Notes: generated by a model from the letters alone, not told the origin. DNA of 64,000 nt from Verrucomicrobiota bacterium (GCA_041691855.1 JBEPTW010000001.1:14215-78214), one strand, 5' to 3'; counted from the stretch's first letter, positions 2,410 to 34,205 are shown. A program made the numbers and translations.

Positions 2410-3777
2410 CTAAATGGCGTAGTCGCCGCTTTCGGGTTTTACGTATTCCGTCGGGATCAGAAACATTCCCGCAGCCACCGTGGCATTGGTGCCTTGCTCA
2501 ATCAGAATAAATGAGCCGGTGAGCCGATTGGTGGTGTAAGCGTCGTGATAAACCGGATGAGCGAGCTGAAGACGGATTTCTCCCAGATCGTTCATCGCGA
2601 GCGACGCTGGCGCGGACTCGGGATCGAGGGTTTCGATGTTGAGGCGATGTACAATGTCGGTGACGACGACTTGCACCGTATGGCTCGTGTGTTTTAGGAA
2701 ATATTTTTTCCCGCGCTGCAGCGGACGCGGATGCATCCAGCAAACCTTCCCGAACAGATCCGTGCCGGTTCCGACGGGTTGCTCAAGATCCACGATCATC
2801 GAACCGCGGCTGATATCGATGTCGTGCTCGAGCACGAGCGTGACGGATTGCGGGCTGAACGCCTCCTGCAACGGACCATCCAACGTATGGATTTCCTTCA
2901 CCGTCGTGACGAGACCGGCTGGGAGTGCCATCACTTTTTGGCCAACCTTGATAATGCCGCCGGCGATCTGCCCGGAAAAACCGCGGAAATCATGAAGGCG
3001 TTTGTCTTTCGGATCATTCGGGCGGTTGACCCACTGGACCGGAAGGCGGAAGCCATCCAGGTTCCAATCGCTGCCGATGTGAATCGTCTCAAGATAACTG
3101 AGCAGCGGCGGGCCGGGATACCATGGCGTATTAGCCGAGGCCGTGACGACGTTGTCGCCATTGAGCGCACTGATCGGAATAAACTTAACATCCTTGAGGT
3201 CGAGGCGCGGCAGAAATTCCTCGAACTGCGTCCGGATTTCATTGAAGCGGGCTTCGCTCCAACCGACGAGATCCATCTTGTTCACGGCGACGATCAAATG
3301 CGGAATGCGCAACAGCGACGCGATCGCGGTGTGGCGGCGGCTCTGCTCGATGACGCCCAGACGCGCATCGACGAGCACAATGGAAACGTTGGCGTTGCTC
3401 GCGCCCGTGACCATGTTGCGCGTGTATTGAATATGGCCCGGGGTGTCGGCGATGATGAACTTCCGCTTCGGCGTCGCGAAGTAGCGATAGGCGACGTCGA
3501 TCGTGATCCCTTGTTCGCGTTCTGCGCGCAATCCGTCGGTGAGATTGGCGAGATTGATCTGCCCGCCGCCGGTGATATCGGCCGAGCGTTCGAGGGCCTC
3601 GATCTGATCTTCCATCAACGATTTTGAATCGTAGAGGAGACGTCCGATCAGCGTGGACTTGCCGTCGTCAACGCTGCCGCACGTGTTGAAGCGCAGGATG
3701 TCGATCGGCAGGGGCGCAGCGGGCCGAGCGGACGAGGCAGAAAGTTCGGACAGAGAAGGTGAGGGTGAAGCGACCAC
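2410..3777 (-). CDS. cysN: Sulfate adenylyltransferase subunit 1 (GTPase), no fused APS kinase
   Basis: CGSVDDGKSTLIGRLL, EREQGITIDVAY, DTPGH, NKMD. Start estimated at GTG 3777; the ORF is open to 3894. Confidence 0.95.
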   Translation of the reverse strand: MVASPSPSLSELSASSARPAAPLPIDILRFNTCGSVDDGKSTLIGRLLYDSKSLMEDQIEALERSADITGGGQINLANLTDGLRAEREQGITIDVAYRYFATPKRKFIIADTPGHIQYTRNMVTGASNANVSIVLVDARLGVIEQSRRHTAIASLLRIPHLIVAVNKMDLVGWSEARFNEIRTQFEEFLPRLDLKDVKFIPISALNGDNVVTASANTPWYPGPPLLSYLETIHIGSDWNLDGFRLPVQWVNRPNDPKDKRLHDFRGFSGQIAGGIIKVGQKVMALPAGLVTTVKEIHTLDGPLQEAFSPQSVTLVLEHDIDISRGSMIVDLEQPVGTGTDLFGKVCWMHPRPLQRGKKYFLKHTSHTVQVVVTDIVHRLNIETLDPESAPASLAMNDLGEIRLQLAHPVYHDAYTTNRLTGSFILIEQGTNATVAAGMFLIPTEYVKPESGDYAI

Positions 3778-3823
3778 GGTGTTAATTGGAAATTGAGCAA
3801 TGCGCAGGGCTGAAATGGGCGGT

Positions 3824-4726
3824 TTAGAAATAACCGGCTTTCTTGCGGTCTTCCATGGCGGCCTCGGACGACTTGTCGTCGGCGCGCGAGCCACGTTCGG
3901 TCACGCGGGCGGCGGCGATTTCCGCGATGATGTCGTCCACGGTGGTCGCGGGTGATTCGACGCAACCCGTGCTGATGATATCGCCGATGGTGCGAACGCG
4001 CACGACGAGATCGCGGACTTCTTCGCGCGGTTTTGGCGGCACGAGGGCATTCACCGGCAGCCATTGGCCACCGCGACGGACGCACTGGCGTTTGTGACTG
4101 AAGTAGATGCTCGGAACTTCCAGTTTCTCTTGGCGGATATATTCCCACACGTCCATTTCCGTCCAATTGCTCAACGGAAACACGCGCATGTTTTCACCGG
4201 GGTTGAGGCGGCCGTTGTAGAGATTCCAGATTTCCGGGCGTTGATTTTTTGGGTCCCATTGGCCGAAGCTGTCGCGGAAACTAAAGAAGCGTTCCTTGGC
4301 GCGGGCTTTTTCCTCGTCGCGGCGGGCGCCGCCGATGCAGCAATCGAAACGAAATTCCTCGATCGCAGCGAGCAGCGTGGGAATTTGCAGACGATTCCGG
4401 CTGATTTCGCCCGGAGACGGCGTAGCGATGCCTTTGGCGATCGCATCCTCCACTGTCCTGATGATGAGCTTGCCGCCGAGTTCCTTGGCGCGGCGATCGC
4501 GGAATTCGTTCAGCTCCGGAAAATGATGGCCGGTATCCACATTGAGCAAAGGGGTGGGAAATTCCGATGGACGGAACGCTTTTTCCGCCAAGCGCAGCAA
4601 GCAGATCGAATCTTTGCCGCCGGAAAACAGCAAAGCGGGGCGTTCGAATTCGCCCGCCACTTCGCGCATGATGTGAATCGCTTCGGTTTCGAGATGTTGA
4701 AGATGATCGAGATGGTAAGAGGTCAC
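3824..4726 (-). CDS. cysD: Sulfate adenylyltransferase subunit 2
   Basis: LETEAIHIMREV, FSGGKDS, GGARRDEEKARAKER, MEDRKKAGYF. Confidence 0.97.
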   Translation of the reverse strand: MTSYHLDHLQHLETEAIHIMREVAGEFERPALLFSGGKDSICLLRLAEKAFRPSEFPTPLLNVDTGHHFPELNEFRDRRAKELGGKLIIRTVEDAIAKGIATPSPGEISRNRLQIPTLLAAIEEFRFDCCIGGARRDEEKARAKERFFSFRDSFGQWDPKNQRPEIWNLYNGRLNPGENMRVFPLSNWTEMDVWEYIRQEKLEVPSIYFSHKRQCVRRGGQWLPVNALVPPKPREEVRDLVVRVRTIGDIISTGCVESPATTVDDIIAEIAAARVTERGSRADDKSSEAAMEDRKKAGYF

Positions 4727-4759
4727 AAAATTGAATTATCTGTTATATACCCAAGCGGT

Positions 4760-5422
4760 TCAGGAGGCCGCGACTGCCGCAGCTTTGCCCCACGCGGCGT
4801 GCAGCCCGCATTCGCGTTTTTCGTCGGCTTTGGCGGGGTCGAAATAATCCCATTCGTTTGGCAGTTTGTGCTCGGCCAGATACGCATCGAGCTGCGCGTC
4901 GGTGTGATAAAAAAACGGACTGACTTTCAACGCGCCGAAATTGGCGTCGTGCGAGATTATATCCAAGCCGGCGCGATTCGGATTTTGCACCTTGCGCAAC
5001 GCAGTAATCCAGACGGTCGGCGCGAGCTCGCGCATGCCGCGTTGAAATGGCTCCAGCTTCATGACGGCGCTGAACTTTTTCAAACCGGTCTCGTCCTCCG
5101 TCGTGGGGATCGGACCATGGATCGCGTCGCGATGTGCGGCCGTCATGCGCGGCAGATATGGTTTGAGATTCAAACTGAATCGCGCGCGCAACTCTTCGGC
5201 GTGCTTGTAGGTCGCCGGCCGGTTGTATCCGTGATCAACCCACAACACTGGAATATCGGCCTGCGCCTGGACGGAGAGATGCAGAATGGCGGCTTCATAC
5301 GGGCGGAAATTCGTCGAGACCAAGGCGCGGCCTTTCGCCTGCGCGATCGCCCAGCGGACGATTTCCAGCGGTGATTTGGTGCGCAACTCGGTGTTGAGTG
5401 CGGAAAGTTCGGCGTCGGTCAT
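4760..5422 (-). CDS. cysH: PAPS/APS reductase family protein
   Basis: STNFRPYEA, VDHGY, WITALR and C-terminal ECGLH; no CC/CxxC Fe-S ligands. Confidence 0.9.
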   Translation of the reverse strand: MTDAELSALNTELRTKSPLEIVRWAIAQAKGRALVSTNFRPYEAAILHLSVQAQADIPVLWVDHGYNRPATYKHAEELRARFSLNLKPYLPRMTAAHRDAIHGPIPTTEDETGLKKFSAVMKLEPFQRGMRELAPTVWITALRKVQNPNRAGLDIISHDANFGALKVSPFFYHTDAQLDAYLAEHKLPNEWDYFDPAKADEKRECGLHAAWGKAAAVAAS

Positions 5423-5433
5423 GTTCGTTGAAT

Positions 5434-7158
5434 TCAGTTGGTGGCGGTAGGAGCCGGAGCACTGGCGACAGCTGCTGCAACCGCCGCCGCTTGTTCGGGG
5501 AGAATGACGCGCGAGCAGAAGTCGCCAAAACGTTCGGTCCCGTTGCGCTCGTTTTTCCAGCGCAGGAAAAGTGGCCGGAGTTCCGCTTCGATCTCGGGAT
5601 CTTTAACGGTGTCCTTGAAAACACGATTGAGGCGTGTCCCGGAAGCGTTGCCGCCGAGCCAGAGTTGATAGCGGCCGGGCGCTTTGCCCACAAAAGCGAT
5701 TTCCGCCATGTAAGGCCGGGCGCAACCATTCGGACAGCCGGTCGAGCGGATGATGATTTCTTCACCGCCCAAACCCAGTTCGCCGCCAAGTTTTTCGATG
5801 CGATCGATCAAGCCGGGTAACATGCGTTCGGATTCTGCCAGCCCCAGACCGCAAGTTGGCATGGATGGGCAAGCCATCGAAGCGGCGTGCAGCACACTGG
5901 CTTGCTGCTCGACCTTCACGCCGTGCGAAGCGAGCAACGCCGTGATGCCGGCGCGGTCGGAATCGGGCACGTTGGCGAGAATGACGTTCTGGTTGGCCGA
6001 CAAACGAAATTCGATGTGCGGGAATTTTTCCGCGACTTGGCGTAAAGCCGTTTTTTGGGCGTGACCTGCGACGTCTTTGATCCGGCCCGTTTCGACAAAA
6101 AGAGTGAGAAACTGGGAACCGTCCACCGCACGATGCCAGCCGTAAAGGTCGCCCGTGGTCGTAAATTTATAAGGGCGAGCCGCGCCCAACGTGAGCCCGG
6201 CGCGTTGATTGATTTCGTTGCGGACGAAATCCACGCCACGATCTTCGAGGACGTATTTGAACCGGGCGTGCTTGCGGTTGGCGCGGTCGCCAAAATCGCG
6301 GAAGGTCGTGAGCACCGCTTTTGCGATGTCGATGACGTTCTCGGGGGCAATGAATCCGATTACGTCCGCGAGCCGGGGGAACGTCTGGACGTTGCCGTGA
6401 CTGCGGCCCATGCCGCCGCCGACTGCGACATTGTAGCCAATGAGCTTATCGTTCTCAACGACGGCGATGAACCCGAGGTCATTGGTGAAAATGTCCATGT
6501 CGTTCACCGGCGGGACGACGAAGGAGATCTTGAATTTGCGCGGCAGATAGGTCTGGCCGTACAGCGGGTCGGTGAAATTTTTGTTCTCGGCGTCCTCGAG
6601 GTCCAACTGGACGTTGTCGATCCAGATGGCGTGATAGGCCTTGGTGATCGGCGCGAGGGCATAGGCCGTGCGCAGGGAGTCGGCGTAAACCTGCTCGCGG
6701 GCCTTGGTGATGGACGGAGTGGGTGAGGCCGTGACGTTGCGATTGACGTCGCCGCAGGCCGCGAGAGTCGACAACAGCGATTCGTTGATCTTCTTGATCA
6801 GGGCGCCTAAGCCGGACTTTACGACCCCGTGAAATTGAATGCACTGCCGCGTTGTGACGCGCAGCGTATTGTTACCGTAATTCGTCGCGAGGTCGTCGAA
6901 CACGGTCCATTGTTTTGCCGTCATGACCCCGCCGGGAATGCGGCTGCGGATCATCATAATATATTTCTTGGCGGTTTTACGCAGATCGCGGTCATCCTGC
7001 TGGTAGATGCCGTGGAATTTCGTGAATTGGGTGTCGTCCTCGGAAAAACGATCCAAGGTGGGATCGGCCAAAGTAGCCGCAATCTGGCCCGCAAGGGTGG
7101 GAATGCTTTGCTTGAGCTGTTCGTTCTTATTTACTGGGGCTGGTTGGATTTCGGCCAT
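5434..7158 (-). CDS. cysI: Sulfite reductase hemoprotein (siroheme/4Fe-4S)
   Basis: KFHGIYQQDDRD, TTRQCIQFHG, ACGDVNRN, MACPSMPTCGL and TGCPNGC ligands. Confidence 0.95.
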   Translation of the reverse strand: MAEIQPAPVNKNEQLKQSIPTLAGQIAATLADPTLDRFSEDDTQFTKFHGIYQQDDRDLRKTAKKYIMMIRSRIPGGVMTAKQWTVFDDLATNYGNNTLRVTTRQCIQFHGVVKSGLGALIKKINESLLSTLAACGDVNRNVTASPTPSITKAREQVYADSLRTAYALAPITKAYHAIWIDNVQLDLEDAENKNFTDPLYGQTYLPRKFKISFVVPPVNDMDIFTNDLGFIAVVENDKLIGYNVAVGGGMGRSHGNVQTFPRLADVIGFIAPENVIDIAKAVLTTFRDFGDRANRKHARFKYVLEDRGVDFVRNEINQRAGLTLGAARPYKFTTTGDLYGWHRAVDGSQFLTLFVETGRIKDVAGHAQKTALRQVAEKFPHIEFRLSANQNVILANVPDSDRAGITALLASHGVKVEQQASVLHAASMACPSMPTCGLGLAESERMLPGLIDRIEKLGGELGLGGEEIIIRSTGCPNGCARPYMAEIAFVGKAPGRYQLWLGGNASGTRLNRVFKDTVKDPEIEAELRPLFLRWKNERNGTERFGDFCSRVILPEQAAAVAAAVASAPAPTATN

Positions 7159-7229
7159 AACTCGGGAAAAACTTGCACCGATTAGCTGGCCGGTAAAGTA
7201 TAAAAGATGTCATATCCACTAAAGAAGTC

Positions 7230-8018
7230 ATGATTGAATCAAAGACCTCACAATCAAAAGGTTTTGTCTGGATGGTCGGCGCCGGTCCCGGCGCTTCGGA
7301 CCTGATTACTGTCCGTGGGCTCAACCTGCTCCGCCGAGCGGAAGCAGTCGTGTACGATGAGCTGGCGAATCACGATTTATTGGACAATTGCCTACCCGAA
7401 TGTGAGTTGCATTCGGTGGGGAAACGAGCCGGCAGTCACAGCGCCTCGCAGGGTGATATTAACGCCCTTTTGGTCTCGCTCGCGAAGGCGGGTCGCAAAG
7501 TCGTCCGACTCAAAGGTGGCGACCCCATGATTTTCGGTCGAATCGGCGAAGAGATTGAAGCGCTGCGGGCGGCCGGACTGCCCTTTGAGATTGTACCTGG
7601 CGTGACGGCGGCGACGGCTTCGGGCGCGGTGGCGGAATTGCCTTTGACGCATCGCGATTACTCGTCGGCCGTGATTTTCATTACGGGTCACCAATGCGCG
7701 GCGAACACCTCGGCGCTCGACTGGAGTGCGTTGGCGAAATTGCGCGCAACTTTGTGCTTTTACATGGGCGTGCGACGACTCCCGGAAATCGTCCACAATC
7801 TGCTCGGCCACGGCATGCGCGCCGACATGCCTCTGGCGCTCGTGAGCGAAGCGACGTTGCCGACCCAACAAGTGCATATTGGCACGTTGCGTGACGCCGA
7901 AAGATTTTCTGCCGACCTCGCTGGTCAACCGGCATTGGTGGTCATCGGGGACGTGGTGCGGCTCTCGAGTTTTGCCGCGCGCGTACCGGAACTGCACGCG
8001 CAGATGCCGAAAGAATAA
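7230..8018 (+). CDS. cobA: Uroporphyrinogen-III C-methyltransferase (SirA/CysG-A/CobA)
   Basis: VGAGPGASDLIT, VRLKGGDPMIFGRIGEE, VPGVTA, ITGH. Confidence 0.93.
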   Translation: MIESKTSQSKGFVWMVGAGPGASDLITVRGLNLLRRAEAVVYDELANHDLLDNCLPECELHSVGKRAGSHSASQGDINALLVSLAKAGRKVVRLKGGDPMIFGRIGEEIEALRAAGLPFEIVPGVTAATASGAVAELPLTHRDYSSAVIFITGHQCAANTSALDWSALAKLRATLCFYMGVRRLPEIVHNLLGHGMRADMPLALVSEATLPTQQVHIGTLRDAERFSADLAGQPALVVIGDVVRLSSFAARVPELHAQMPKE

Positions 8019-8052
8019 ATCGCAGCAAGCGCATCGCGCCGAGTCACGGGCA

Positions 8053-8090
8053 CAAAAAAAGAGCCGGTCGAAATGATCGGCTCTTTGTCT
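8053..8090. terminator. Bidirectional intrinsic terminator
   Basis: aaagagccggtc-gaaat-gatcggctcttt hairpin with flanking A- and T-runs, between convergent genes. Confidence 0.75.
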
Positions 8091-8106
8091 CTAGATGGGT
8101 TGAAAC

Positions 8107-9354
8107 TCAGCCCTCGTATCCGGGCAGCGTCTTGTCGACGCCTTCCTTGCTGAGGCGAACATAAGATGGCAGGCCATTGTCGTACGGCACCGTCACTTCG
8201 CCTTGAATCAACGGGGTCGCATAGCGGAAGAACTGGAAGTTCAAGCTGACGCCGTCTTCGTTGACCCACTCCTTGGGTAGTTTCTTGAGATTGCCAACGA
8301 TATCGCTGAGAGCCGACAGGCCGGTCTCGCAGGTGTAGTTATCGCCATCACCACGCACGAGGGTGACGAGTTTATCGGATTCGCCGTTCACCGCGGCTTT
8401 GACGGCGGCTTGACCGACGAGGAACGCTTCATCGGCATCCGTCTTCGAAGCGAGATGCGCCGCTGACCGCTGCGTCACGCCCAAGCGGGCAACGCGGGCC
8501 TTGGCTCCAACCTGGCCTTCAACCAGATCCTTTAAATATTCGCCAATGCCGCCCAACTGGGATTCGGCCGTGCCATTGTTTTCAACGGAAACGTAATTGC
8601 CGTCCTTGTCCACGAGGCCTTCACCCGCGACGACGACGCAATGTTTCTCGCGTTTCAACACCCGGCGGACGTCCTCGACGAATTTTTCGTTGGTGAACGG
8701 AACCTCGGGCAGATAAACCAAGTGCGGCGGATCGTTTGGATGATCGCGGCGCTTGGCGAGCGAAGCACCAGCGGCGAGCCAGCCACTGTTGCGACCCATC
8801 ACTTCCATGATCGTCACCAAATCGCCCTGACCCATCGAGTCGGCATCGAGCGAGAGTTCCTTCACGGTTGCGGCGATGTACTTGATCGCGCTGCCATAAC
8901 CGGGGCAATGATCGGTGGCCGGCAGATCGTTTTCGACCGTCTTCGGAATTCCGATTACCCGCAGATCGTAGTCCTGAGCCTGCGCCGCTTCGCTGATCTT
9001 CGCGGCGGTTTCCTGGGAATCGGCGTCGCCGATGTGAAAATAAAAGCGGATATTGTGGGCCTTAAACACGGCGAGCACGCGATCGAAATCCTGGGGTTTC
9101 TTCAACTTGGTCCGGCAGGTGCCGAGCGCCGCTCCCGGCGTGGAACGGAGACCACGGATGGCCTGTTGCGATTCAGCCGCGAGGTCGACGAAATCCTCAT
9201 TCAGGAGGCCGAGCACGCCATTGAGCGAGCCGTAGATTTCCTCGATGGAAGAATGATTAAGGGCTTCGGCGACAACGCCGGCGACGCTCGCGTTGATGAC
9301 GGCCGTGGGTCCGCCAGATTGGCCGATCAGACAGTTTCCGACTAGTTCTGCCAT
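8107..9354 (-). CDS. Phosphofructokinase-family protein (PPi-type lineage) with degenerate catalytic motifs
   Basis: GQSGGPTAVIN, GTCR, EVMGR, GEG and TQR retained; GGxDS is replaced by GDADS and KTIDND by KTVEND. Confidence 0.88.
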   Translation of the reverse strand: MAELVGNCLIGQSGGPTAVINASVAGVVAEALNHSSIEEIYGSLNGVLGLLNEDFVDLAAESQQAIRGLRSTPGAALGTCRTKLKKPQDFDRVLAVFKAHNIRFYFHIGDADSQETAAKISEAAQAQDYDLRVIGIPKTVENDLPATDHCPGYGSAIKYIAATVKELSLDADSMGQGDLVTIMEVMGRNSGWLAAGASLAKRRDHPNDPPHLVYLPEVPFTNEKFVEDVRRVLKREKHCVVVAGEGLVDKDGNYVSVENNGTAESQLGGIGEYLKDLVEGQVGAKARVARLGVTQRSAAHLASKTDADEAFLVGQAAVKAAVNGESDKLVTLVRGDGDNYTCETGLSALSDIVGNLKKLPKEWVNEDGVSLNFQFFRYATPLIQGEVTVPYDNGLPSYVRLSKEGVDKTLPGYEG

Positions 9355-9560
9355 GGTGTGATGTGGTTAAAGCTGTTAAAGAAACGAAAGGAAGGGTCAA
9401 AAAAGGCCACCGTCCAACCGCTGGCAAACCAAATCTCCCTAAATTTCCCCGGATAGGCCGTCGCTCGGTACCGAGCGATCAGTCGAGTTGTCGGGAGTCT
9501 GCCTCTTTTCGCACTCCGCTTTGAGCAAAATGCCTTCATTTTCCGATCCGTCGGAAAACG

Positions 9561-11000
9561 TCAAAGCAGCTTGCCCGGCCGATACTCCGCCGCGCCTTTC
9601 TGCTTCTTACCGAGGGGCTGAACCGCCGTCACAAACGCGTCCACTTGGTGGGGCGCCGCGCCGACAAATCGTTCATTCTGAGCAAGAATCTCCTGTAATT
9701 TCTTTTTCCCGAGGCCCACGCGTTTGTCGCCCGCCAGACGGCCGAGCAGGTCGGCGTTCCCGCCCGAACGCAGCGCCTTCGCGGCGGCCAAGGCGTGCTC
9801 TTTGATGGCTTCGTGCGCCGTTTCGCGACCCGCGCCGGTTTTTACGGCCTCCATCAAGATCGTCGTCGTCGCGAGGAAGGGGAGGTTGCGCTCATTTTCT
9901 GCCGCAATGGCCGCAGGGAAAACGTCCATCTGCCGCAATACGGTCAGGAACGTTTCCAACAACCCGTCGATCGCGAAAAACGCATCGGGCAACGCCACGC
10001 GTCGCACCACCGAACACGACACATCGCCTTCGTTCCATTGATGCCCGGCCAGCGCCGCCGTCATCGTCACATAACCGGAAAGAATCGTGGAAAACCCACA
10101 GATGCGTTCGCAGTTCCGCGCATTGACCTTGTGCGGCATCGCCGACGAACCGACCTGACCTTCTTGAAAACCCTCCGTTAGCAACCCCGCGCCTGCCATC
10201 AGTCGCAACGTCACGGCGCAACTCGCCCCCGCCGCGCCCACTTGATGCAGTGCACTCACCACGTCGAAATCCAAGCTGCGCGGATAAACTTGCCCAACCG
10301 CCTCGAGCGACGCCTTAAACCCAAGATGTTTCACAATCCGCGATTCCAACTGATCCACCTTATTGGTGTCGCCACCGAGCAGCGTCAATTGGTCGAGCTG
10401 CGTGCCCACCGCGCCCTTCAGTCCCCGCACTGGATAACGCGCGATCAACTCCGCGAGTCGCTCGTGCGCGATGAGCAATTCCTGCCCAAACATCGCGAGC
10501 CGCTTGCCGAGCGTGGTCGGTTGCGCGGGCACGTTGTGCGTGCGACCGGTGATCATCACGTCGCGATGCGTCGCGGCCTGACGCCCGAGCGCCAACAGCG
10601 CAGCGACGACCTTGAACTTCACCAACTGCAATGACCGGGCGACCTGCAGTTGTTCGACGTTTTCGGTCAAATCGCGGCTGGTTAGTCCGAGGTGAATGAA
10701 TTGCCGCTTGGCCAGATCGGAAAATTCCTCCAGTCGCGCCTTCACGTCGTGCAACGTGACGCGCTCGCGTTCCTTGATGCGCTCGACGTTCACGTCAGCG
10801 CGCACCCGTTCGTAATCCTTGATCGCCTCGGACGGAATCGCGACGCCCAGATCCTTTTGCGCCTTCATCACGGCGATCCAAAAATCGCGCTCCAGCAAAA
10901 TGCGTCCGTGGGCGGACCACAGGTCTTTCATCGTCGACGACGCATAGCGCTCGGCCAGTACATTAGGAATGGATTCGGCTGAAGAAGTAGGGGAAGTCAC
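9561..11000 (-). CDS. purB: Adenylosuccinate lyase
   Basis: IPNVLAERYAS, HLGLTSRD, GRTHNVPAQPTT, fumarate-lyase signature GSSAMPHKVN. Start estimated at GTG 11000. Confidence 0.95.
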   Translation of the reverse strand: MTSPTSSAESIPNVLAERYASSTMKDLWSAHGRILLERDFWIAVMKAQKDLGVAIPSEAIKDYERVRADVNVERIKERERVTLHDVKARLEEFSDLAKRQFIHLGLTSRDLTENVEQLQVARSLQLVKFKVVAALLALGRQAATHRDVMITGRTHNVPAQPTTLGKRLAMFGQELLIAHERLAELIARYPVRGLKGAVGTQLDQLTLLGGDTNKVDQLESRIVKHLGFKASLEAVGQVYPRSLDFDVVSALHQVGAAGASCAVTLRLMAGAGLLTEGFQEGQVGSSAMPHKVNARNCERICGFSTILSGYVTMTAALAGHQWNEGDVSCSVVRRVALPDAFFAIDGLLETFLTVLRQMDVFPAAIAAENERNLPFLATTTILMEAVKTGAGRETAHEAIKEHALAAAKALRSGGNADLLGRLAGDKRVGLGKKKLQEILAQNERFVGAAPHQVDAFVTAVQPLGKKQKGAAEYRPGKLL

Positions 11001-11158
11001 AAAGACAAAACCGTTAGTCCGACCCCACCGCGTTGCCAATGGAAAACCGTGCGATTGTACCGGATCACCTTTTTTTGCAGCTGCGAATCGCCCGCGTTTT
11101 CAAAAACCCGGCTTTTGAGACAGACTCTAATTAAGCCGAATACATGTGGTCGCATCCA

Positions 11159-11229
11159 ACCACAGAAGACTCAGCATACACAGGGTGAACATTTTTCCGA
11201 TTTCTGGGTATGCGGTGTGTTCTGTGATG
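11159..11229. repeat. Inverted pair of 9-bp-period triplet repeats
   Basis: aacacagaa-gactcagca-tacacaggg facing the reverse complement atcacagaa-cacaccgca-tacccagaa. Confidence 0.6.
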
Positions 11230-11260
11230 CGCTCTACTGAATTTTCACGGCTAAGATTCC

Positions 11261-12370
11261 TCACGTCAGACACCGCACCGCCATATCGCGCAGCACCACT
11301 TCCTGTTCATTCGGACGGCGGATGATTTCCTCGAAGGCGCGGACGAATTCCTGCTGGTTGTCGATCAACCGGCGCAATGTCGGTAGTTTCGCCGAACCGA
11401 CCAGTTTGCCAACATACCACTGGTTTTGCGTGAAAATATTATACGCGCTCTTTTCGGTGTCGCCGCCGAAATGCTCCGAATAAGCCGCTTGCGCCTTCGC
11501 CCACGCCGCTTTGTCGAAACCGTACGGACCGGGCGCGCGCAAATCGCCGGCATCGATCAGCACCCGCACCTGCAACAGGATTCGGTTGCGATTCTGGAGT
11601 GCACTGATGATCGGTCGGGCGTCGCCACCGGCAAAAAAATGGCGCTGCAACTCGACCAGCGTGCCGCGCAAATCACCGGCGAAAAAACGTTCGGCGGATG
11701 CGAAAAAATCGCCCTCGGCAAAGTTGGGCGTCAATTCCTCGACGTGCGCTTCCTCGATCACTCCGCCGTCGCCCGCGTAGGTGGCGAGTTTGCGCGTCTC
11801 CTCAGTCAACAAACGCGTATTCGCCCCCACTTTTTGTAACAAGAGTTCCAGGGCGTTGTTGCCAAACGTCGCGTTAAATCCCTTCGCCTCGGCCATCGCC
11901 ACCATCGCCAATCCCTCGCCCGCCGATTCACCGTCGCCGCCGGCCAAGGTGAAATCCGAATTCGCTTCGCACCATTTCGCAAACGCGCGCCGTCGATCCA
12001 CCGGTGCCGCCGTGATCACGATGGTCACTTCGTCCGCTTTTGCTTTTTCCAAAAGATCCTGCAACGCCGCAACCTGCTTGAGCGTCCCCTCGGCCCGCCC
12101 GGTGACGGTATCGGCGAGAAAGTTCATGTCCTTGAGCCACACCACGCGCTTGCCGCCAAACATCGGTACCGTCTGCACCGCATCACGAAAACGATTCACC
12201 GCCGTTTCGACTTCATCGACATTCGCGGCAAAACCGCTGACGACTTCCCGCGAAAAATCATCCGCATTTGCCTCCGCCACGAGCGCGTCGAACCGCTCCT
12301 TGCCCTCCCGATTGACGATGAAGTCATCGGGCCCGCAGATGAAGACGAAGTTTTTGGTCACTGTCGGCAT
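11261..12370 (-). CDS. holA: DNA polymerase III delta subunit
   Basis: FICGPDDF, QTVPMFGGKRVVWLK, LLTEETRKLATY; typical length. ATG at 12370. Confidence 0.85.
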   Translation of the reverse strand: MPTVTKNFVFICGPDDFIVNREGKERFDALVAEANADDFSREVVSGFAANVDEVETAVNRFRDAVQTVPMFGGKRVVWLKDMNFLADTVTGRAEGTLKQVAALQDLLEKAKADEVTIVITAAPVDRRRAFAKWCEANSDFTLAGGDGESAGEGLAMVAMAEAKGFNATFGNNALELLLQKVGANTRLLTEETRKLATYAGDGGVIEEAHVEELTPNFAEGDFFASAERFFAGDLRGTLVELQRHFFAGGDARPIISALQNRNRILLQVRVLIDAGDLRAPGPYGFDKAAWAKAQAAYSEHFGGDTEKSAYNIFTQNQWYVGKLVGSAKLPTLRRLIDNQQEFVRAFEEIIRRPNEQEVVLRDMAVRCLT

Positions 12371-12384
12371 GAGCCGGAATTTGC

Positions 12385-12412
12385 CCACGAAACATACGAA
12401 AGCGCACGAAAA
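12385..12412 (+). repeat. 9-bp-period triplet repeat
   Basis: ccacgaaac-atacgaaag-cgcacgaaa, with acgaa recurring at about 9-10 bp spacing. Confidence 0.5.
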
Positions 12413-12511
12413 TTATTGGCCAAATCAAGCCTCCGCGCGTTTTTCTTTTCGCTGAGCGCACAACACGCCCGGCGTCGCGTTCCGCCAAGCCGTATTCATG
12501 CAATCGGTTTA

Positions 12512-12657
12512 GGCTGTGTCTGGTAAATAAACTATCACCAATCAACTCTGCTCGGGCGCGTAGGGCCGTCGCTTGCGACGTGCCGTTTTTCGCGCGCGAG
12601 GCCGGCGCAAGCACCGGCCCTACAGCAGGCGACGCAAGTTATTTCCCAGACGCGCCC
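12512..12657. mobile_element. 146-bp MITE, copy 1, with an internal GTAG-REP doublet
   Basis: Imperfect 19-bp terminal inverted repeats (ggctgtgtctggtaaataa / ttatttcccagacgcgccc), TA on both flanks, near-identical to 39114-39259. Confidence 0.85.
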
Positions 12658-12685
12658 TAACCACTTCTGGCTTAGTAATTGTTTT

Positions 12686-12752
12686 GTAGCGACAGGCGTC
12701 CCGCCTGTCGGATTGGCTTCCGTCGATCCCACAGGCCGGAGGCCTGTGTTCC
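12686..12752. repeat. GTAG-type REP pair
   Basis: gtagc-gacaggcgtcccgcctgtc ... cacaggccggaggcctgtg; homologous to 17248-17304 and 59243-59311. Confidence 0.75.
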
Positions 12753-12920
12753 TTATTTGCGTCGTCCGATTAACTCGGGCGAGGTAAGGCAGCGATTCGT
12801 TGTCCCATTCAGTCCACCGTTTGGTGAGAGAAAACCAGGTTCGTTTTGCCCGGAACGGCGGCTTCTCGTGTCATTTCGTGTGTTTTATGGACCACTCCGA
12901 TTGCATTGTTCCGGCAACGA

Positions 12921-14225
12921 CTAATTTGCCAACTGGATCGACGCCTTGCGCGATTCCTTCACCACTTCGCGGCGCAACCAATCTATCGCGGCCGTCACCG
13001 CCCGCTCTTTCACCGCGCAACGCGGGCCGGGATAAGTTAGTTTTTTCGACCAGTCGCCACCCGGCGCGTGCATTCCGACAAAAATCGTCCCCACAGGATT
13101 TTCGCCGACTCCGCCCGTCGGTCCCGCGAATCCCGTGATCGCCACGCCAAAATCAGCCCCGAGTTGCTCCGCGACACCCGTCGCCATCGCCACTGCGCAT
13201 TCCGCGCTGACCGCCCCGTGCTGCGAAAGCAAACACTCGGGACAATCGAGCAACAACATCTTCGAATCGTTGCTGTATGAAACGATGCCGCCTTGGAAAA
13301 ATTTCGAAGCACCGCAAACGTCCGTAAATGAATTCGCGAGCAATCCGCCCGTACACGATTCCGCCACCGCTAGCGTCCGGCCCTGCGCGCGAAGCTCGTC
13401 CGCGACGACCTTCACCATGCTGTCGTGGCCAAAACACACGAAATCCTCGTCGAGCAACCCGGCGCACTCATTCGCCAAGCTGCGCAAAACATTCATCGAA
13501 TAGCGCCCATCCGGTGAACTGATCCGGCAATCCACCTGCCCAAGATGCGCGCAAAACGCGATGCCCAGCTCAGGATATCGGTCGAACAACGGCTGAAATT
13601 TCATCTCCAACGCCGACTCGCCCACACCAGCCGTGCGAATCTGAATATAGGCTTCGCTTTCGGAAAGCAGTCCGAGCGCTGCCAGCCGTGGAATCACCTG
13701 CTCCTTGAAAATCGGCCGGAGCTCATTGGGCGGTCCGGGCAGCATGATCAGCACTTTCCCGTCTTGTTGCACCCAAAGTCCCGGCGCCGTGCCGTTCGCG
13801 TTGGCCAGGACTTCGCTGCGCTCAAATTTGTAAGCCTGTTTCAGGTTGTTCGTAGTCGGCTTGCGGTTGGAGCGCGCAAATCGATCGGTGATGGTCTGCT
13901 CGATCGCCGGATCAAAAACCAATTTCTGCCCCAACGCTTTCGCGAGCACCTCACGCGTACGGTCGTCACAGGTCGGCCCAAGTCCGCCCGTGGTAATAAT
14001 CACATCCGCCTTCGCCCAGCTTTCGCGAAATTGTTCGGCGATGGCGAATGCCTCATCCGTGATGGTCACATTCCTCGCCAGCATCACCCCGCGTCGGCCG
14101 AGCTCGGCCCCGATCCACGTCAGATGGCCGTTCGCCGTCAGTCCCAAGAGCAGCTCGTCGCCCAAGGTGAGCAACTCATAACGCGGCGCGACGCGGCGCG
14201 AATTTGACGGTTCAATAGTAGCCAT
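12921..14225 (-). CDS. cinA: Competence/damage-inducible protein CinA (MoCF-like domain plus PncC domain)
   Basis: LGDELLLG, TTGGLGPTCDDRT, MLPGPPNEL, AESCTGG, HGAVSAECA, ITGFAGP. Confidence 0.93.
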   Translation of the reverse strand: MATIEPSNSRRVAPRYELLTLGDELLLGLTANGHLTWIGAELGRRGVMLARNVTITDEAFAIAEQFRESWAKADVIITTGGLGPTCDDRTREVLAKALGQKLVFDPAIEQTITDRFARSNRKPTTNNLKQAYKFERSEVLANANGTAPGLWVQQDGKVLIMLPGPPNELRPIFKEQVIPRLAALGLLSESEAYIQIRTAGVGESALEMKFQPLFDRYPELGIAFCAHLGQVDCRISSPDGRYSMNVLRSLANECAGLLDEDFVCFGHDSMVKVVADELRAQGRTLAVAESCTGGLLANSFTDVCGASKFFQGGIVSYSNDSKMLLLDCPECLLSQHGAVSAECAVAMATGVAEQLGADFGVAITGFAGPTGGVGENPVGTIFVGMHAPGGDWSKKLTYPGPRCAVKERAVTAAIDWLRREVVKESRKASIQLAN

Positions 14226-14386
14226 GCGGTGGGTGTGTGACCGGGGAACTTACCCCGTTTTTTTGAAAATGCCAGCCGGCTGGTGACAATGACGCGCTTT
14301 CTGTCGTTGCGACTAAACCACAAGTGATCAATTCAGCGGTAGGTTCGCTGGCAGTCTCTCCCGCCGACGATTCTCCTGCCCTGATA

Positions 14387-15889
14387 ATGCCTGATCCACG
14401 CCATACCGACGCACTCAAGGAAAAGGTCCGCGCCCTGCCGGACGGCCCCGGCGTGTATTTAATGAAGGATCGTCTCGGCCGCATTATTTATGTCGGCAAG
14501 GCCAAGAGTCTTAAAAAACGCGTTTCCTCCTACTTCCAAGCTGGCCGATCCCGCGCGCTGCACCATCAACCTAAAATCCGGACCTTGATCGAGATGATCG
14601 TCGATCTCGAAATTCTCGAGGTCAAGTCCGAGCCCGAGGCGCTTTTACTGGAAGGAAAACTCATCAAACAGTGGCGGCCAAAGTACAACACCGACTTCAC
14701 CGACGACAAACGCTTCCTGCTGGTCCGGCTGGATCTCGAGGTCGAACTTCCCCGCTTTGTCCTCACGCGTTTCAAAAAAGATACGCGCTCGCGCTACTTC
14801 GGGCCGTTTGCCCATTCCGGATTGTTGCGCAAAACACTCGCGACGATGCGCGCGAAATTCGGCGTGTTGCTCGGCGATTCCTCGCCGAAGAAAATTTCCG
14901 CCGACACTTGGCAACTTTACGACGACGTGCGCTCCGAACTTTATGGTTGGCCCAACACGGTCACGACGGCGGAATACCGCGAGCGCGTCGTGCAAGCCGC
15001 CGATTTCCTCGACGGCAAAAGCCGCGAATGGCTCGCTTCACTCCGGACTGAAATGATGGTGCGCGCCGGCAAACAGGAATTCGAAAAAGCCGCCGAACTT
15101 CGCGACATCGTCCTCGCCCTCGAACGAACACTTTCGCCCACGCGAAAATTCAGCCGCGAAGTCGTACAATTGCAGCCGGATCAAACGGCGTTGGTCGCGC
15201 TCCAAACCGCGCTCAACCTGCCGACGCTGCCGGTGAATCTCGAGTGTTTCGATATTTCGCACATCTCCGGGACGTTCGTCGTCGCGTCGATGGTGCACTT
15301 TACCAACGGCCGGCCCGACAAAAATAATTACCGCCGTTTTTCCATTAAAAGTTTTATTGGCAACGACGATTTTCGCGCGATGGAGGAAGTCGTGGGCCGC
15401 CGCTACCGTCGGCTGCGGGACGAGAAAAAAACATTCCCGGATCTGGTCGTGATCGATGGCGGCCGCGGACAGATCGCCGCCGCGTTAAAAGCATTTGTCG
15501 CTATTGATTGCGCGCCGCCGCCAATGATCGGCCTCGCGAAGAAAATGGAGACGATCATTTTTCCCGACGAGCGTCCGCCGCTCAATCTCCCGCTTAATCA
15601 TCCGGCGTTAAATCTGCTCCAACGCCTCCGCGACGAAGCGCATCGTTTTGCCAACACGTACAACGCCGACCTTCGCTCCCGCAAAATCAAGGAAAGCGTG
15701 CTCGACGATTTTCCCGGTCTCGGCCCCGTGCGCCGTGCCGCGTTGCTCGGCCACTTCGGTTCACTCGAAAAACTCCGCGCCGCCACGGTCAAAGAAATCG
15801 GTGCCGCGCCCGGCTTCGGCCCAAAATTCGCCGCCCAGGTCCACGCCTTTCTCGCCACCAAATCACCGCCAGCAGCAAGCGCCGATTAG
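14387..15889 (+). CDS. uvrC: Excinuclease ABC subunit C
   Basis: GIY-YIG (PGVY..IIYVGKAKSL), UVR motif, DISHISG, DGGRGQ, RDEAHRFA, C-terminal HhH. ATG at 14387. Confidence 0.96.
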   Translation: MPDPRHTDALKEKVRALPDGPGVYLMKDRLGRIIYVGKAKSLKKRVSSYFQAGRSRALHHQPKIRTLIEMIVDLEILEVKSEPEALLLEGKLIKQWRPKYNTDFTDDKRFLLVRLDLEVELPRFVLTRFKKDTRSRYFGPFAHSGLLRKTLATMRAKFGVLLGDSSPKKISADTWQLYDDVRSELYGWPNTVTTAEYRERVVQAADFLDGKSREWLASLRTEMMVRAGKQEFEKAAELRDIVLALERTLSPTRKFSREVVQLQPDQTALVALQTALNLPTLPVNLECFDISHISGTFVVASMVHFTNGRPDKNNYRRFSIKSFIGNDDFRAMEEVVGRRYRRLRDEKKTFPDLVVIDGGRGQIAAALKAFVAIDCAPPPMIGLAKKMETIIFPDERPPLNLPLNHPALNLLQRLRDEAHRFANTYNADLRSRKIKESVLDDFPGLGPVRRAALLGHFGSLEKLRAATVKEIGAAPGFGPKFAAQVHAFLATKSPPAASAD

Positions 15890-15985
15890 GCTGTGTCAGG
15901 TAAATAAACCATCGCCAATCAGCTCTGCTCGGGCGCGTAGGGCCGTCGCTTGCGACGTGCCGTTTTTTGCGCGCGAGGCCGGTGC
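15889..15985. mobile_element. Truncated MITE, copy 2 (left terminal repeat plus first REP)
   Basis: Matches the first ~95 bp of 12512-12657 and begins inside the uvrC TAG stop codon. Confidence 0.8.
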
Positions 15986-16001
15986 CCATTCTGATCTGAT
16001 C

Positions 16002-16054
16002 GTAGGTTGCGTGCTCGTCGCGCAACGGTTGTGGGCGGGGTGCCCTCACCCCGC
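16002..16054 (+). repeat. Two further REP-like hairpins with GTAG/GTGG feet
   Basis: gtag-gttgcg..cgcaac and gtgg-gcggggtg-ccct-caccccgc. Confidence 0.55.
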
Positions 16055-16126
16055 ATCAGTGTCAGAATGGTTTTACCCCAAGGCAGCAAAAGTCACAAAG
16101 GCCGAAGAAACGAACCGACGAAATTA

Positions 16127-16283
16127 AACGCGGAGAACGCGAAGGACGCAGAGACCACGGATTTCACGGATGCGTTAACCCTTCTGCGAATCGCAGACTG
16201 CACCGTTTCCATGCCGCAAGCGCCGGTCAGCTCAGATCTAAATTCCGCGCTCTGACTTCTGTGTATTCGGTGTATTCTGTGGT
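16127..16283. repeat. 9-bp-period arrays in inverted orientation
   Basis: Five in-register units at 16127-16171 (aacgcggag aacgcgaag gacgcagag accacggat ttcacggat); three minus-strand units at 16257-16283 (accacagaa tacaccgaa tacacagaa). Confidence 0.7.
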
Positions 16284-16332
16284 GCCCCTGCTGCATTGTT
16301 CCGGCTATGCTGACCGCGCCTCCGCCCCATCC

Positions 16333-17175
16333 TCACTTCTTCATTCGAAGAACATATTCGATCAACCGATCCGGCATCAGCCATTTCGCGAACAGAAAAA
16401 TCTTGGCGTGAAACGGTCCACTGTAACGCGGCGCAGGATTATCCGACGCGAGCGCCTTTTCGACGAGCCGCGCGATATCGTCCGGCACGCCAGCGACACT
16501 ACGCAGTTTTTGGATGCCGGCGCGAGTTGCCGCCCAAAACGGTTCGTAAGGTCCGACGGTTCCAGTGAATTCCCCGGACGCCTTGTCGGCGGCGGAGATG
16601 AATTCAGTCGCGATAAAACCCGGACGGATAAGCGACACGCGCACGCCAAACGGCTGCATTTCCCCTCGGAGTCCGTCGGTGATCGCCTCGAGTGCGTGCT
16701 TCGTCGAATCGTACACCGAGGAAAGCGGCCGCGCGATCCGGCCGGCCACGGAACCGATGTTCACCACGCAACCGCTGCCTCGCTCGCGCATCGCCGGAAT
16801 CACGAGCTGCGTCAGCGCGATCAGCGAAAAGACATTTGTTTCAAAGTTGCGGCGGATCGCCTCGACCGGCACGAGTTCGAGCGGACCGCGCGTGCCGAAT
16901 CCGGCATTGTTGACGAGTGCATCGATCCGGCCAAATTTCTTCAATGTCTCGGCGACGAGCGCGCGGCGGTCGCTATCGCTGGTGACGTCTCCCACCAGCG
17001 CCAGCACGCTCGCGCCACTGGAGTCGAGTTCGTGCGCGAGTGCGTTCAACTGCTCGGGACGACGCGCCATGATAACAACTTTCGCTCCGGCGTGCACCAA
17101 CCGGCGCGCAATCGCTTCACCGATGCCCGACGAGGCACCAGTGACGATCACGACTTGTCTGGAAAGCGCGGGCAT
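16333..17175 (-). CDS. Short-chain dehydrogenase/reductase
   Basis: TGASSGIG, NNAGFG, catalytic S..YDSTK (YxxxK), PGFIAT. Confidence 0.93.
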   Translation of the reverse strand: MPALSRQVVIVTGASSGIGEAIARRLVHAGAKVVIMARRPEQLNALAHELDSSGASVLALVGDVTSDSDRRALVAETLKKFGRIDALVNNAGFGTRGPLELVPVEAIRRNFETNVFSLIALTQLVIPAMRERGSGCVVNIGSVAGRIARPLSSVYDSTKHALEAITDGLRGEMQPFGVRVSLIRPGFIATEFISAADKASGEFTGTVGPYEPFWAATRAGIQKLRSVAGVPDDIARLVEKALASDNPAPRYSGPFHAKIFLFAKWLMPDRLIEYVLRMKK

Positions 17176-28229: not shown

Positions 28230-30008
28230 TTACTGCGGTTCGCGGATGGTGATTGTCTGATTGATGGCCGTGGGCCGGAGTTCCTGGCGTTGGCCGGAAG
28301 GCCATTGGATGACGATTTTCTGGATGCGGGTATCTTCCCCCAAACCAAACGTCAGACTCGAATCCGATTGCGCCATGAAGCCCATCGCCGGGGCAACTGT
28401 TCGGGTGAAAATGCGGCGCGGCGTATGAATTTCGACGCGCGCTCCGCCGGCGTCGGGCTGGCTGCGCGTGGCGATCAAATGCAGGCGCAACCATGGTAGT
28501 CCGCTGCGCTGATCGTTGCGCAGAACCACCGCCGGTCCGTTGTTCTGCACGATGATCACGTCGTCGTCGCCATCGCCGTCGATGTCGGCCAGCGCGATGC
28601 CGCGCGCGACCAGCGGCTGGGCCCACGTGCTGCCTTCGGCGACGGGTGCAGGCAGCCAGCGATGATTTCGCTCCACCAATAATTGCGGCCGGGCTGAGAA
28701 ATTACGGCCCTGCCCGAATTTATTCACATCGGGTTCGGCGCGAGCGTTGCCGGAAAACAGCGCGAGGTGTCCATTGAATTCGTAGTCGAATAACGCCACG
28801 CCAAATTTCCCCGCGAGATGCAGTTGGGCCTCGGTGACATCGGGCAGGGTCGGCGGCGCGCCGGCGGTGAACTGGAGCGCGGCGAGGCGTTCGTTGCGGT
28901 CGAGGGAATTGGCGAACGGCAGCAGGCTGGTCGACGCGAGCCCGGCGCTGGCGCCTTCGTTGCGGTTGTTGTTGCCGCCGGTCCACTTTTTGAAAGTGCC
29001 GTCGCCTTGATTGAGGAACAGAGCGTTTTCGGCGGCGTGATAGGAGAACAGCAAATCCAGTTTTCCGTCGCCGTTGGCGTCGACGGGCACGACGGCCAGC
29101 GCTTTTTCCACCGGGCGTCCGGTCTGGGCGTCCACGTTGCGCAGGCCCGCCGATCCGGTGACGAGAGCGAATTTTCCGTGGCCTAGGTTGCGATAGACAG
29201 AAGGAAAGGCGCTGACGAATCCGGTGGGCGCGCCATAGGAGCGACCGACGTCCGCGATGGTGAAGGCCATCGCCAGCGGAACTTCCTGCGGCCACCGCGC
29301 GTAGTGAACGACCACGAGATCGAGCAAGCCATCGCCATCGTAATCGATCCAGGTCGCGCCCGTGCTCCACGTCTGGTCGTCGCCGGCGACGCCCGCTTCG
29401 AGCGTGACGTCCTCGAACGTGCCATCGCCTTTATTGTGCAGCAGATGATTGGGGCCGACGCACGTGATAAAGATGTCCGGGTAACCGTCATTGTCGTAGT
29501 CGCCCACGGCGGCGCTCATGCCCTGGATGATCAAGTCCACGCCGGCCGCCTGGGAAACGTTCGTGAAGTGTCCGGTGCCGTCGTTGTGATAAAGCGCACA
29601 AGCCGACGCGCTGGTCCACGCACCGCGATCTTCCCACGGCCACGCCGTGCCATTAATGAAAAAAAGATCGGGATGTCCGTCGCGATCGTAATCGATCACG
29701 ACCACCGCACCGCCGAGGGTGGTGGGGGATTCCAGGGTCGCGGCATGATGCACGAAACGAATACCTGATTCTTCGGTGATGTTGGTAAACCGCGCGACTG
29801 GCACCGGCTGCGCTGCCGCACTCGTGGCGGGAAAAAATCGCGCGAACGTCACGCTGAGGATGATGGCCGCGATCACCAAGGTCAGCACGACGGGCAGCAG
29901 CGGGGAAATAGCCGTGCGCTCCGGCGGTCCGGCTGGACGGCGGACGGGTGGGGCATTGGGAGGTGGAAGGGGAGAACTCACCGGTGAAGCCCGAAAGGGC
30001 GTGGACAC
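28230..30008 (-). CDS. Membrane-anchored FG-GAP/VCBS propeller protein with C-terminal ASPIC/UnbV domain (CRTAC1-like)
   Basis: N-terminal TM, DYDRDG/DYDNDG/DYDGDG/DANGDG/DIDGDG repeats, GARVEI..FMAQSDSSLTFGLG..WPSG. Start uncertain (GTG 30008). Confidence 0.85.
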   Translation of the reverse strand: MSTPFRASPVSSPLPPPNAPPVRRPAGPPERTAISPLLPVVLTLVIAAIILSVTFARFFPATSAAAQPVPVARFTNITEESGIRFVHHAATLESPTTLGGAVVVIDYDRDGHPDLFFINGTAWPWEDRGAWTSASACALYHNDGTGHFTNVSQAAGVDLIIQGMSAAVGDYDNDGYPDIFITCVGPNHLLHNKGDGTFEDVTLEAGVAGDDQTWSTGATWIDYDGDGLLDLVVVHYARWPQEVPLAMAFTIADVGRSYGAPTGFVSAFPSVYRNLGHGKFALVTGSAGLRNVDAQTGRPVEKALAVVPVDANGDGKLDLLFSYHAAENALFLNQGDGTFKKWTGGNNNRNEGASAGLASTSLLPFANSLDRNERLAALQFTAGAPPTLPDVTEAQLHLAGKFGVALFDYEFNGHLALFSGNARAEPDVNKFGQGRNFSARPQLLVERNHRWLPAPVAEGSTWAQPLVARGIALADIDGDGDDDVIIVQNNGPAVVLRNDQRSGLPWLRLHLIATRSQPDAGGARVEIHTPRRIFTRTVAPAMGFMAQSDSSLTFGLGEDTRIQKIVIQWPSGQRQELRPTAINQTITIREPQ

Positions 30009-30052
30009 GTATTGCTTGTCTATCCTTGATCCACCGCAAACCATTTTGCGCG

Positions 30053-31138: not shown

Positions 31139-31142
31139 TCCC

Positions 31143-34183: not shown

Positions 34184-34205
34184 ATTTCATTTGACCCTGC
34201 TCCCT

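Follow-up and report, generated by a model that had tools for sequence, protein, structure and literature searches.

A purB-linked phosphofructokinase of Opitutaceae with a remodelled phosphoryl-donor loop and a glutamate at the general-base position: enzyme or pseudoenzyme?

Can a phosphofructokinase (PFK) exchange the aspartate that acts as its general base, together with a glycine of its phosphoryl-donor loop, and still be an enzyme? This question is raised by a pfp-like gene at positions 8107-9354 (minus strand) of a 64,000-nucleotide stretch of DNA (JBEPTW010000001.1:14215-78214 of assembly GCA_041691855.1; hereafter the window), which belongs to a Lacunisphaera-like contig (Verrucomicrobiota, Opitutaceae) from a freshwater-sediment metagenome. 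The general base, Asp127 in Escherichia coli PfkA, and the Gly-Gly pair of the donor loop count as universal features of PFK superfamily members, and annotation pipelines label the variants "6-phosphofructokinase" without comment. Our literature searches turned up no account of the motif, nor of any pseudoenzyme among bacterial PFKs, and a 2025 review of the superfamily mentions neither (PMC12203962). We conclude, with a probability of roughly 0.55, that the gene encodes a still-catalytic sugar-phosphate phosphotransferase with a remodelled donor loop and a glutamate as general base. Here, we set out the evidence for this reading and weigh it against the alternatives.

The reading frame is uninterrupted, starts with ATG and encodes 415 amino acids. 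The protein belongs to the PFK superfamily by its full-length match to Pfam PF00365 (E 1.2e-57; 195.8 bits, cut-off 30.9; window residues 8-319 on profile positions 2-275 of 277), and to one subfamily, that of diphosphate--fructose-6-phosphate 1-phosphotransferase, by its match to NCBIfam NF010675/PRK14072 (512.8 bits, cut-off 273; residues 6-410 on positions 4-413 of 416). NF010675 is the only one that it passes; in each of the other NCBIfam PFK models it stays under the cut-off. End-to-end alignments with the solved structures PDB 3k2q (E=3e-97) and 3hno (E=2.5e-92) complete the picture, and together these matches bear out the full-length PFK fold and intact open reading frame (ORF) claimed by the first-pass annotation, which was made from the sequence alone. 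An AlphaFold model built on a shallow alignment had a mean predicted local distance difference test score (pLDDT) of 55 and was discarded. The protein of the same family in the type strain Lacunisphaera limnophila IG16b (finished genome CP016094) is AOS44176.1.

For the active site, an alignment of 138 subfamily representatives (50%-identity clusters) with E. coli PfkA was used, and site positions are given in E. coli numbering unless stated otherwise. The subfamily consensus is GGNDS at positions 101-105, with Asn at 103, and PKTIDND around the general base. The window protein has GDADS and KTVEND, and re-reading the DNA confirmed both codon strings as first reported (Table 1), including the Asp at the conserved Gly102 and the replacement of the catalytic base Asp127 by Glu (gaa, Glu141 of the window protein). 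The canonical mechanism relies on Gly-Gly at 101-102, where the window protein has Gly109-Asp110, and on Asp127 within T-I/V-D-N-D. These two exchanges are the real departures, together with the reduction of position 103 to a small residue. The motifs previously listed as kept (GQSGG, D104, K124, MGR, and E222) are all present, as are R72, S105, T125, N128, D129, R243, and R252. The set of residues for fructose 6-phosphate (F6P) and fructose 1,6-bisphosphate (FBP) binding and for the transition state (R72, T125, D129, M169-G170-R171, E222, R243, and R252) is complete. Pyrophosphate (PPi)-dependent PFKs are recognized by Asp104 (GGxD) and Lys124 (PKTIDxD) (PMC12203962), and both are found in the window protein as D112 and K138.

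One element of the first reading, the removal of a Mg-ligand Asp103, does not hold for this subfamily. Ala103 is not the loss of an aspartate ligand, because PRK14072 proteins carry Asn or Gly at position 103 and in no case Asp; the residue is Gly in both solved structures, 3K2Q from Marinobacter aquaeolei and 3HNO from Nitrosospira multiformis (NGGGDS, PKTVDND). The Methylococcus capsulatus enzyme is described as experimentally active and highly similar to the PPi-PFKs of ammonia oxidisers (PMC5960693), to which 3HNO belongs, and through this stated likeness to 3hno-type enzymes the identity of position 103 appears, by analogy, to be non-essential. The two structures resemble the window protein in length (~420 amino acids), in D104, K124, MGR, E222, and R243-type residues, and in having neither Asp nor Asn at 103, but unlike it they keep Gly102 and Asp127.

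The altered residues are a property of a whole clade. The best 120 database matches (83-100% identity) come from NCBI, JGI, ENA, and Logan assemblies, with the NCBI entries named Lacunisphaera, and nearly all of them read H(I/V)GD(A/G/S/T)(D/E)SQET and PKT(I/V)END; L. limnophila IG16b has HIGDGDSQET and PKTIEND. Among the 119 full-length cluster representatives that were counted, position 102 is Asp in 118 and position 127 is Glu in 118, whereas 120 of 120 canonical Opitutaceae sequences have Gly and Asp, respectively, and carry both GGNDS and KT[IV]DND. Position 103 is more variable in the variant clade (A80/G33/S4/T1/N1, vs. Asn in 120/120), and so is position 104 (D96/E22/G1, vs. Asp in 120/120). 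G101, S105, K124, T125, N128, and D129 are each found in 118-119 of the 119 variants (K124 in 118) and in all 120 canonical sequences, and R72, M169-G170-R171, E222, R243, and R252 occur in every sampled sequence of the variant clade. A pseudoenzyme is expected to lose several catalytic or binding residues and to relax across the site, whereas here only 102, 103, and 127 differ and relaxation is confined to 103 and 104. The alignment of orthologues that the first-pass annotation had proposed as a check thus finds D102 and E127 clade-wide and under purifying selection. One apparent intermediate, P0106 (ENA contig of 2472 bp; GGNDS with KTIEND), was rejected as chimeric: its N-terminal ~135 residues resemble the canonical form and the remainder the variant, and its cluster sibling P0535 is an ordinary variant. 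An assembly chimera is the probable explanation, or else natural recombination between two Opitutaceae.

The genomic position of the gene identifies its origin. The order cinA-holA-purB-pfp is found with the variant in the window, in L. limnophila (L099), in Oleiharenicola (L037), and at loci L001, L092, and L100. With the canonical enzyme it is found in more than 20 Opitutaceae/Opitutales genomes (L012-18, L021-27, L029-30, L032, L035, L039-40, and L095); named isolates with the canonical form are Opitutus terrae, Termitidicoccus mucosus, and strain EW11. It also occurs at L003, with a degenerate PFK. The gap between purB and pfp in the window is 206 bp. The canonical proteins share with the window protein the purB-linked locus, the length, 68-76% identity, and the F6P-binding and PPi-signature residues, but differ in having FFY(I/A)GGNDSQDT and PKT(I/V)DND (120/120) where the window protein has YFHIGDADSQET and PKTVEND. 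The window gene is the positional, vertically inherited orthologue of the canonical Opitutaceae PPi-PFK and not a paralogue. Neither in the window nor within 10 kb of six variant loci is there a second PFK-family gene, and the canonical forms that turned up are orthologues in other genera. Two candidate cases of paralogy were rejected. The canonical copies away from the purB locus at L010 (9870-11117) and L011 (5957-7200), both JGI contigs, cluster with the purB-linked canonical orthologues; they carry several frameshifts, neighbouring genes are split too, and the frameshifts are most likely assembly indel errors rather than marks of pseudogenes. P0044 and P0510, taken as one contig with both forms, lie on separate contigs, each of them linked to purB.

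Neighbour-joining trees of PurB and PFK from the same loci agree with this, as in both the variants are nested inside the canonical Opitutaceae. The variants are monophyletic with 94% (PurB) and 100% (PFK) bootstrap support, and their sister is L021, a near-canonical form with GGSDS/KSIDND (85 and 99%). Variants and degenerate forms as one group receive 0-1%. A first tree from 50%-identity representatives placed the query among the degenerate proteins; this was an artefact, since the canonical near relatives were hidden in the query's own cluster, and adding canonical Opitutaceae from the loci moved the query clade among the canonical enzymes. A positional orthologue, matching PFK and PurB trees and no second PFK nearby cast doubt on the earlier proposal of a regulatory subunit that would serve an active paralogue.

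The tempo of change differs between the stem and the crown of the clade. On the stem branch PFK accumulated 0.096 substitutions per site against 0.021 in PurB (~4.6-fold), whereas inside the clade the two proteins have an equal mean distance of 0.132. The PFK/PurB divergence ratio is 1.35-1.83 between variants and most canonical sequences and 1.13-1.39 between variants and the sister L021, compared to a median of ~0.8 within canonical pairs and within variant pairs. Pairs of clade members give dN/dS values of 0.03-0.10, as they do for purB, with one pair at 0.24 (purB 0.26), and dS is ~1.0-1.2 in most pairs. A single burst took place on the stem branch, and strong constraint then returned; this pattern marks a functional shift or a re-optimisation and not decay. 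The clade differs from 144 canonical Opitutales sequences by 17 fixed substitutions, five of which fall in residues 105-122 in window numbering (F105Y, Y107H, G110D, D115E, and K122E; hypergeometric P=4e-4 for a span chosen after seeing the data), and a further one is D141E at the general base. L021 was checked for the donor-loop and D141E changes and has none of them. Of the first description as a re-purposed PFK, the functional change is therefore plausible in view of the stem burst and the clustered substitutions, whereas the loss of catalysis that went with it is not borne out.

A sub-lineage gives further information on how the changed positions relate to each other. P0026, P0538 (L100:6857-8101), and P0539 are >90% identical to ordinary variants and occupy the same locus, and they read GDSGS/KTIDND. 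They have seven private substitutions, three of which are A103S, D104G, and E127D, and no residue other than Glu or Asp is seen at position 127 anywhere in the variant clade. Gly104 (GGDG vs. GGDD) is the signature of ATP as phosphoryl donor (PMC12203962). A joint change at 103, 104, and 127 is what might be expected of a working active site. The label "catalytically dead" is unsupported, as the catalytic changes comprise only Asp to Glu and Gly102 to Asp, both new residues are conserved, and 103, 104, and 127 switch jointly.

The reading that we favor is that the donor loop and the general base were rebuilt together on the branch to the Lacunisphaera/Oleiharenicola lineage, where FFYIGGNDSQDT would have become YFHIGD(A/G)(D/E)SQET and KTIDND would have become KT(I/V)END. 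Glu141 would take over the general-base role of Asp127, and the metal/PPi site would receive a carboxylate from Asp110 (position 102), standing in for Asn103, which has given way to the smaller Ala or Gly. Since the F6P/FBP site is unchanged, F6P and FBP, possibly also sedoheptulose 7-phosphate, would remain the sugar substrates, while a change in kinetics, metal use, or donor preference is probable. The sugars that L. limnophila can use include glucose, fructose, mannose, galactose, and many disaccharides (PMC5303756), and saccharolytic hosts as well as a glycoside-hydrolase (GH) cluster after pfp at L001 and L100 fit a glycolytic role.

Several points weigh against a still-catalytic enzyme. 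Across phyla, ~110 canonical 50%-identity clusters show no exception to Gly102 and Asp127, and neither do the 120 canonical Opitutaceae. Mutants of Asp127 in E. coli PfkA drop by orders of magnitude in kcat, and as a rule a phosphate-binding loop tolerates a Gly-to-Asp exchange poorly. Constraint at 103 and 104 is relaxed in the variant clade, whereas its canonical relatives do not vary there. One metagenome-assembled genome (MAG) labels its copy "pfp 1", which hints at a second pfp-like gene. The derived states D102, E104, E107, and E127 of the window clade also form the consensus of evidently non-catalytic orthologues from other Opitutales, and in one further pair of relatives D102 appears to precede additional decay: the MAG locus L033 (6001-7254) reads GDSDS/KTIDND/MGR, and its sister L038 (6001-7254), from the cultured Pelagicoccus sp. 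SDUM812005 (NZ_JARXIA010000006.1), reads GDSES/KTINND/QGR, with Asn as base and Met169 replaced by Gln, so that L038 appears to be part-way through losing catalysis. Literature searches found no biochemical data for any Lacunisphaera or Opitutaceae PFK.

The invariance of the two exchanged positions elsewhere, the relaxation at 103 and 104, and the name "pfp 1" also fit a pseudoenzyme, as proposed by the first-pass annotation. Phosphoryl transfer would then be lost or crippled through Gly102Asp and Asp127Glu, and the protein would be kept for binding fructose phosphates or PPi, as a regulator or a non-catalytic partner. This is the best of the alternatives, and we consider it unlikely rather than remote. 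What keeps it alive for the window protein is the recurrence of Gly102Asp, which by its distribution on the trees appears to have arisen at least three times independently in Opitutales and was twice followed by loss of the catalytic site. Truly degenerate PFK-like proteins, intact ORFs in which nearly every catalytic and F6P-binding residue is replaced, make up ~27 clusters among the top 150 subfamily clusters. Of these, at least L003 and L042 lie directly downstream of purB, next to PurB proteins 54-59% identical to that of the window. The degenerate proteins keep 39 of 86 canonically conserved positions and lose 28 of 86, among them R72, K124, M169, R171, R243, D129, S105, and T125; their donor-loop consensus is G-D-x-E-A, and they have Ser at 125 and Asp or Glu at 127. 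Two lineages with D102, one made up of L033 and L038 and the other of L042, L003 and the ~27 clusters, have lost catalytic and F6P-binding residues, progressively or fully, with intact ORFs, and a selectable non-catalytic role for the scaffold therefore seems to exist in Opitutales. From their sequences, the degenerate purB-linked orthologues have the appearance of a family of bacterial PFK-derived pseudoenzymes that the searched literature does not describe. They (L003/P0125, L042, P0123-P0127, and others) resemble the window protein in locus, scaffold, and the derived states named above, but differ in that catalytic and binding residues are lost and in that they arose in different families. 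Opposed to a pseudoenzyme in the window are, besides orthology and the lack of a nearby partner PFK, the retention of R72, K124, T125, N128, D129, and R171 through synonymous saturation, residues that the true pseudo-forms lose. The restriction of position 127 to Glu or Asp, with its return to Asp together with D104G, and the saccharolytic hosts (PMC5303756) likewise speak for an enzyme.

The recurrence of Gly102Asp also allows a staged version of events, which we hold to be improbable, somewhat more so than a simple pseudoenzyme. The purB-linked PPi-PFK would repeatedly have left its canonical function by one path (Gly102Asp, followed by Asp104Glu, Asp107Glu, Asp127Glu, and Ser105Ala). The Lacunisphaera/Oleiharenicola protein would then be the earliest stable stage, binding fructose phosphate and no longer acting as a PPi phosphotransferase (e.g., a metabolite sensor or a multi-metal hydrolase of FBP or sedoheptulose bisphosphate, SBP), and the later stages (Pelagicoccus L038, L042, L003, and the ~27 clusters) would be full pseudoenzymes with a selectable non-catalytic role.

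Less probable again is a changed chemistry, in which H107, D110, E115, and E141 (window numbering) form a different or additional metal site and the protein uses another donor or acceptor, such as polyphosphate, a nucleotide, or water, the last making it an FBP/SBP phosphatase. The fixed changes are indeed concentrated in the donor loop, where they add or lengthen side chains of the metal-ligand type (Tyr to His, Gly to Asp, and twice Asp to Glu), the F6P/FBP site is untouched, and the sub-lineage with the ATP-type Gly104 (PMC12203962) has gained it coupled to E127D. However, this proposal is purely inferential, and the PPi signatures D104 and K124 are kept in 96-118 of 119 variants. Finally, an artefact (an error of sequencing or assembly, a private mutation, or a pseudogene in decay), of which the first two had been named as possible refutations, is itself refuted by the occurrence of the motifs in 118 of 119 relatives from four assembly sources and in the finished isolate genome of IG16b, by the dN/dS values, and by sequencing run X1, in which the window is found at 100% of sampled words and one contig spans 8110-9500 with zero differences. 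Runs X8, X11, and X16, labelled by organism names, behave as complex metagenomes.

Non-catalytic members of the PFK family are familiar from eukaryotes, where plant PFP alpha and the C-terminal halves of PFKs have the PFK fold with substituted catalytic residues and kept sugar-phosphate binding. Their origin is duplication or fusion, a catalytic copy exists beside them, and many of their residues are replaced. The window protein differs from them in that no duplication is evident and only two or three site positions are changed. Gene duplication and fusion in eukaryotic PFKs, including the yeast alpha and beta subunits, have been reviewed (PMC12203962). If the window protein is active, the general base and the donor loop of a PFK can be rebuilt together, and the forms GGNDS/D, GGSDS/D, GD(A/G)(D/E)S/E, and GDSGS/D (donor loop/position 127) make up a natural covarying set for the study of donor specificity and epistasis. 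If it is inactive, the annotation of glycolysis is wrong for a genus widespread in freshwater and soil, and a PFK pseudoenzyme would be documented in bacteria.

Table 1. Coordinates of the features discussed (window positions unless a locus is named; codon positions in E. coli PfkA numbering in brackets).
Feature	Coordinates	Strand	Remarks
pfp-like CDS, 415 aa	8107..9354	-	PRK14072-type PPi-PFK orthologue, remodelled active site; ORF, profile and structure-sequence matches
Codons G109-D110-A111-D112-S113 (101-105)	9016..9030	-	ggc gac gcc gat tcc; GDADS vs. subfamily GGNDS
Codons K138-T139-V140-E141-N142-D143 (124-129)	8926..8943	-	aag acg gtc gaa aac gat; KTVEND vs. KTIDND
Strand-loop-helix of phosphoryl-donor site, window residues 105-122	8989..9042	-	5 of 17 fixed substitutions, and relaxed positions 111 and 112
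purB (adenylosuccinate lyase)	9561..11039	-	upstream neighbour; synteny anchor and rate control
holA (DNA polymerase III delta) and cinA	11261..14225	-	rest of the cinA-holA-purB-pfp block
Terminator-like hairpin	8043..8074	-	7-bp G+C-rich stem (8050-8056 with 8068-8074), then seven T on the minus strand
Degenerate full-length PFK-like ORFs	L003:10001-11176 (=P0125); L042:6001-7248; L008:10001-11248 (=P0134)		intact

The hairpin downstream of pfp lies 33 nt past its stop codon, between the convergent pfp and cobA genes, and was read directly from the sequence; a pattern scan had placed a hairpin at the same site on the plus strand. Its form suggests a role as a transcription terminator. Beyond it, the window carries a sulfate-assimilation cluster (2410-8018) with a CysN-like GTPase, two PAPS-reductase-family genes, a sulfite reductase haemoprotein (5434-7158), and uroporphyrinogen-III methyltransferase (7230-8018); at the corresponding position after pfp, L001 and L100 have a GH1/GH27/GH130/GH2 cluster instead. 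Farther along the window, two large FG-GAP/ASPIC (UnbV) repeat proteins (28230-30164 and 34191-37505) flank a LytTR-type two-component pair (29948-31922). The degenerate locus L003 is situated on a contig of 520,877 bp (ENA ERZ21869517 contig_1) and at 3530-17157 encodes TIR-, TPR-, and F-box-domain proteins among many short unannotated ORFs; the contig may come from a host-associated Opitutales relative. In other phyla, PRK14072-type pfp genes have a pfkA-like neighbour at a distance of a few hundred bases at most (L077, L078, L079, L082, L085, L086, L088, and L089). These tandem pairs belong to several Bacillota/Christensenellaceae genomes and one MAG labelled Bacteroidaceae, and their pfkA-like members have GGDG(S/T) or GGNGT with P(G/A/K)TIDND.

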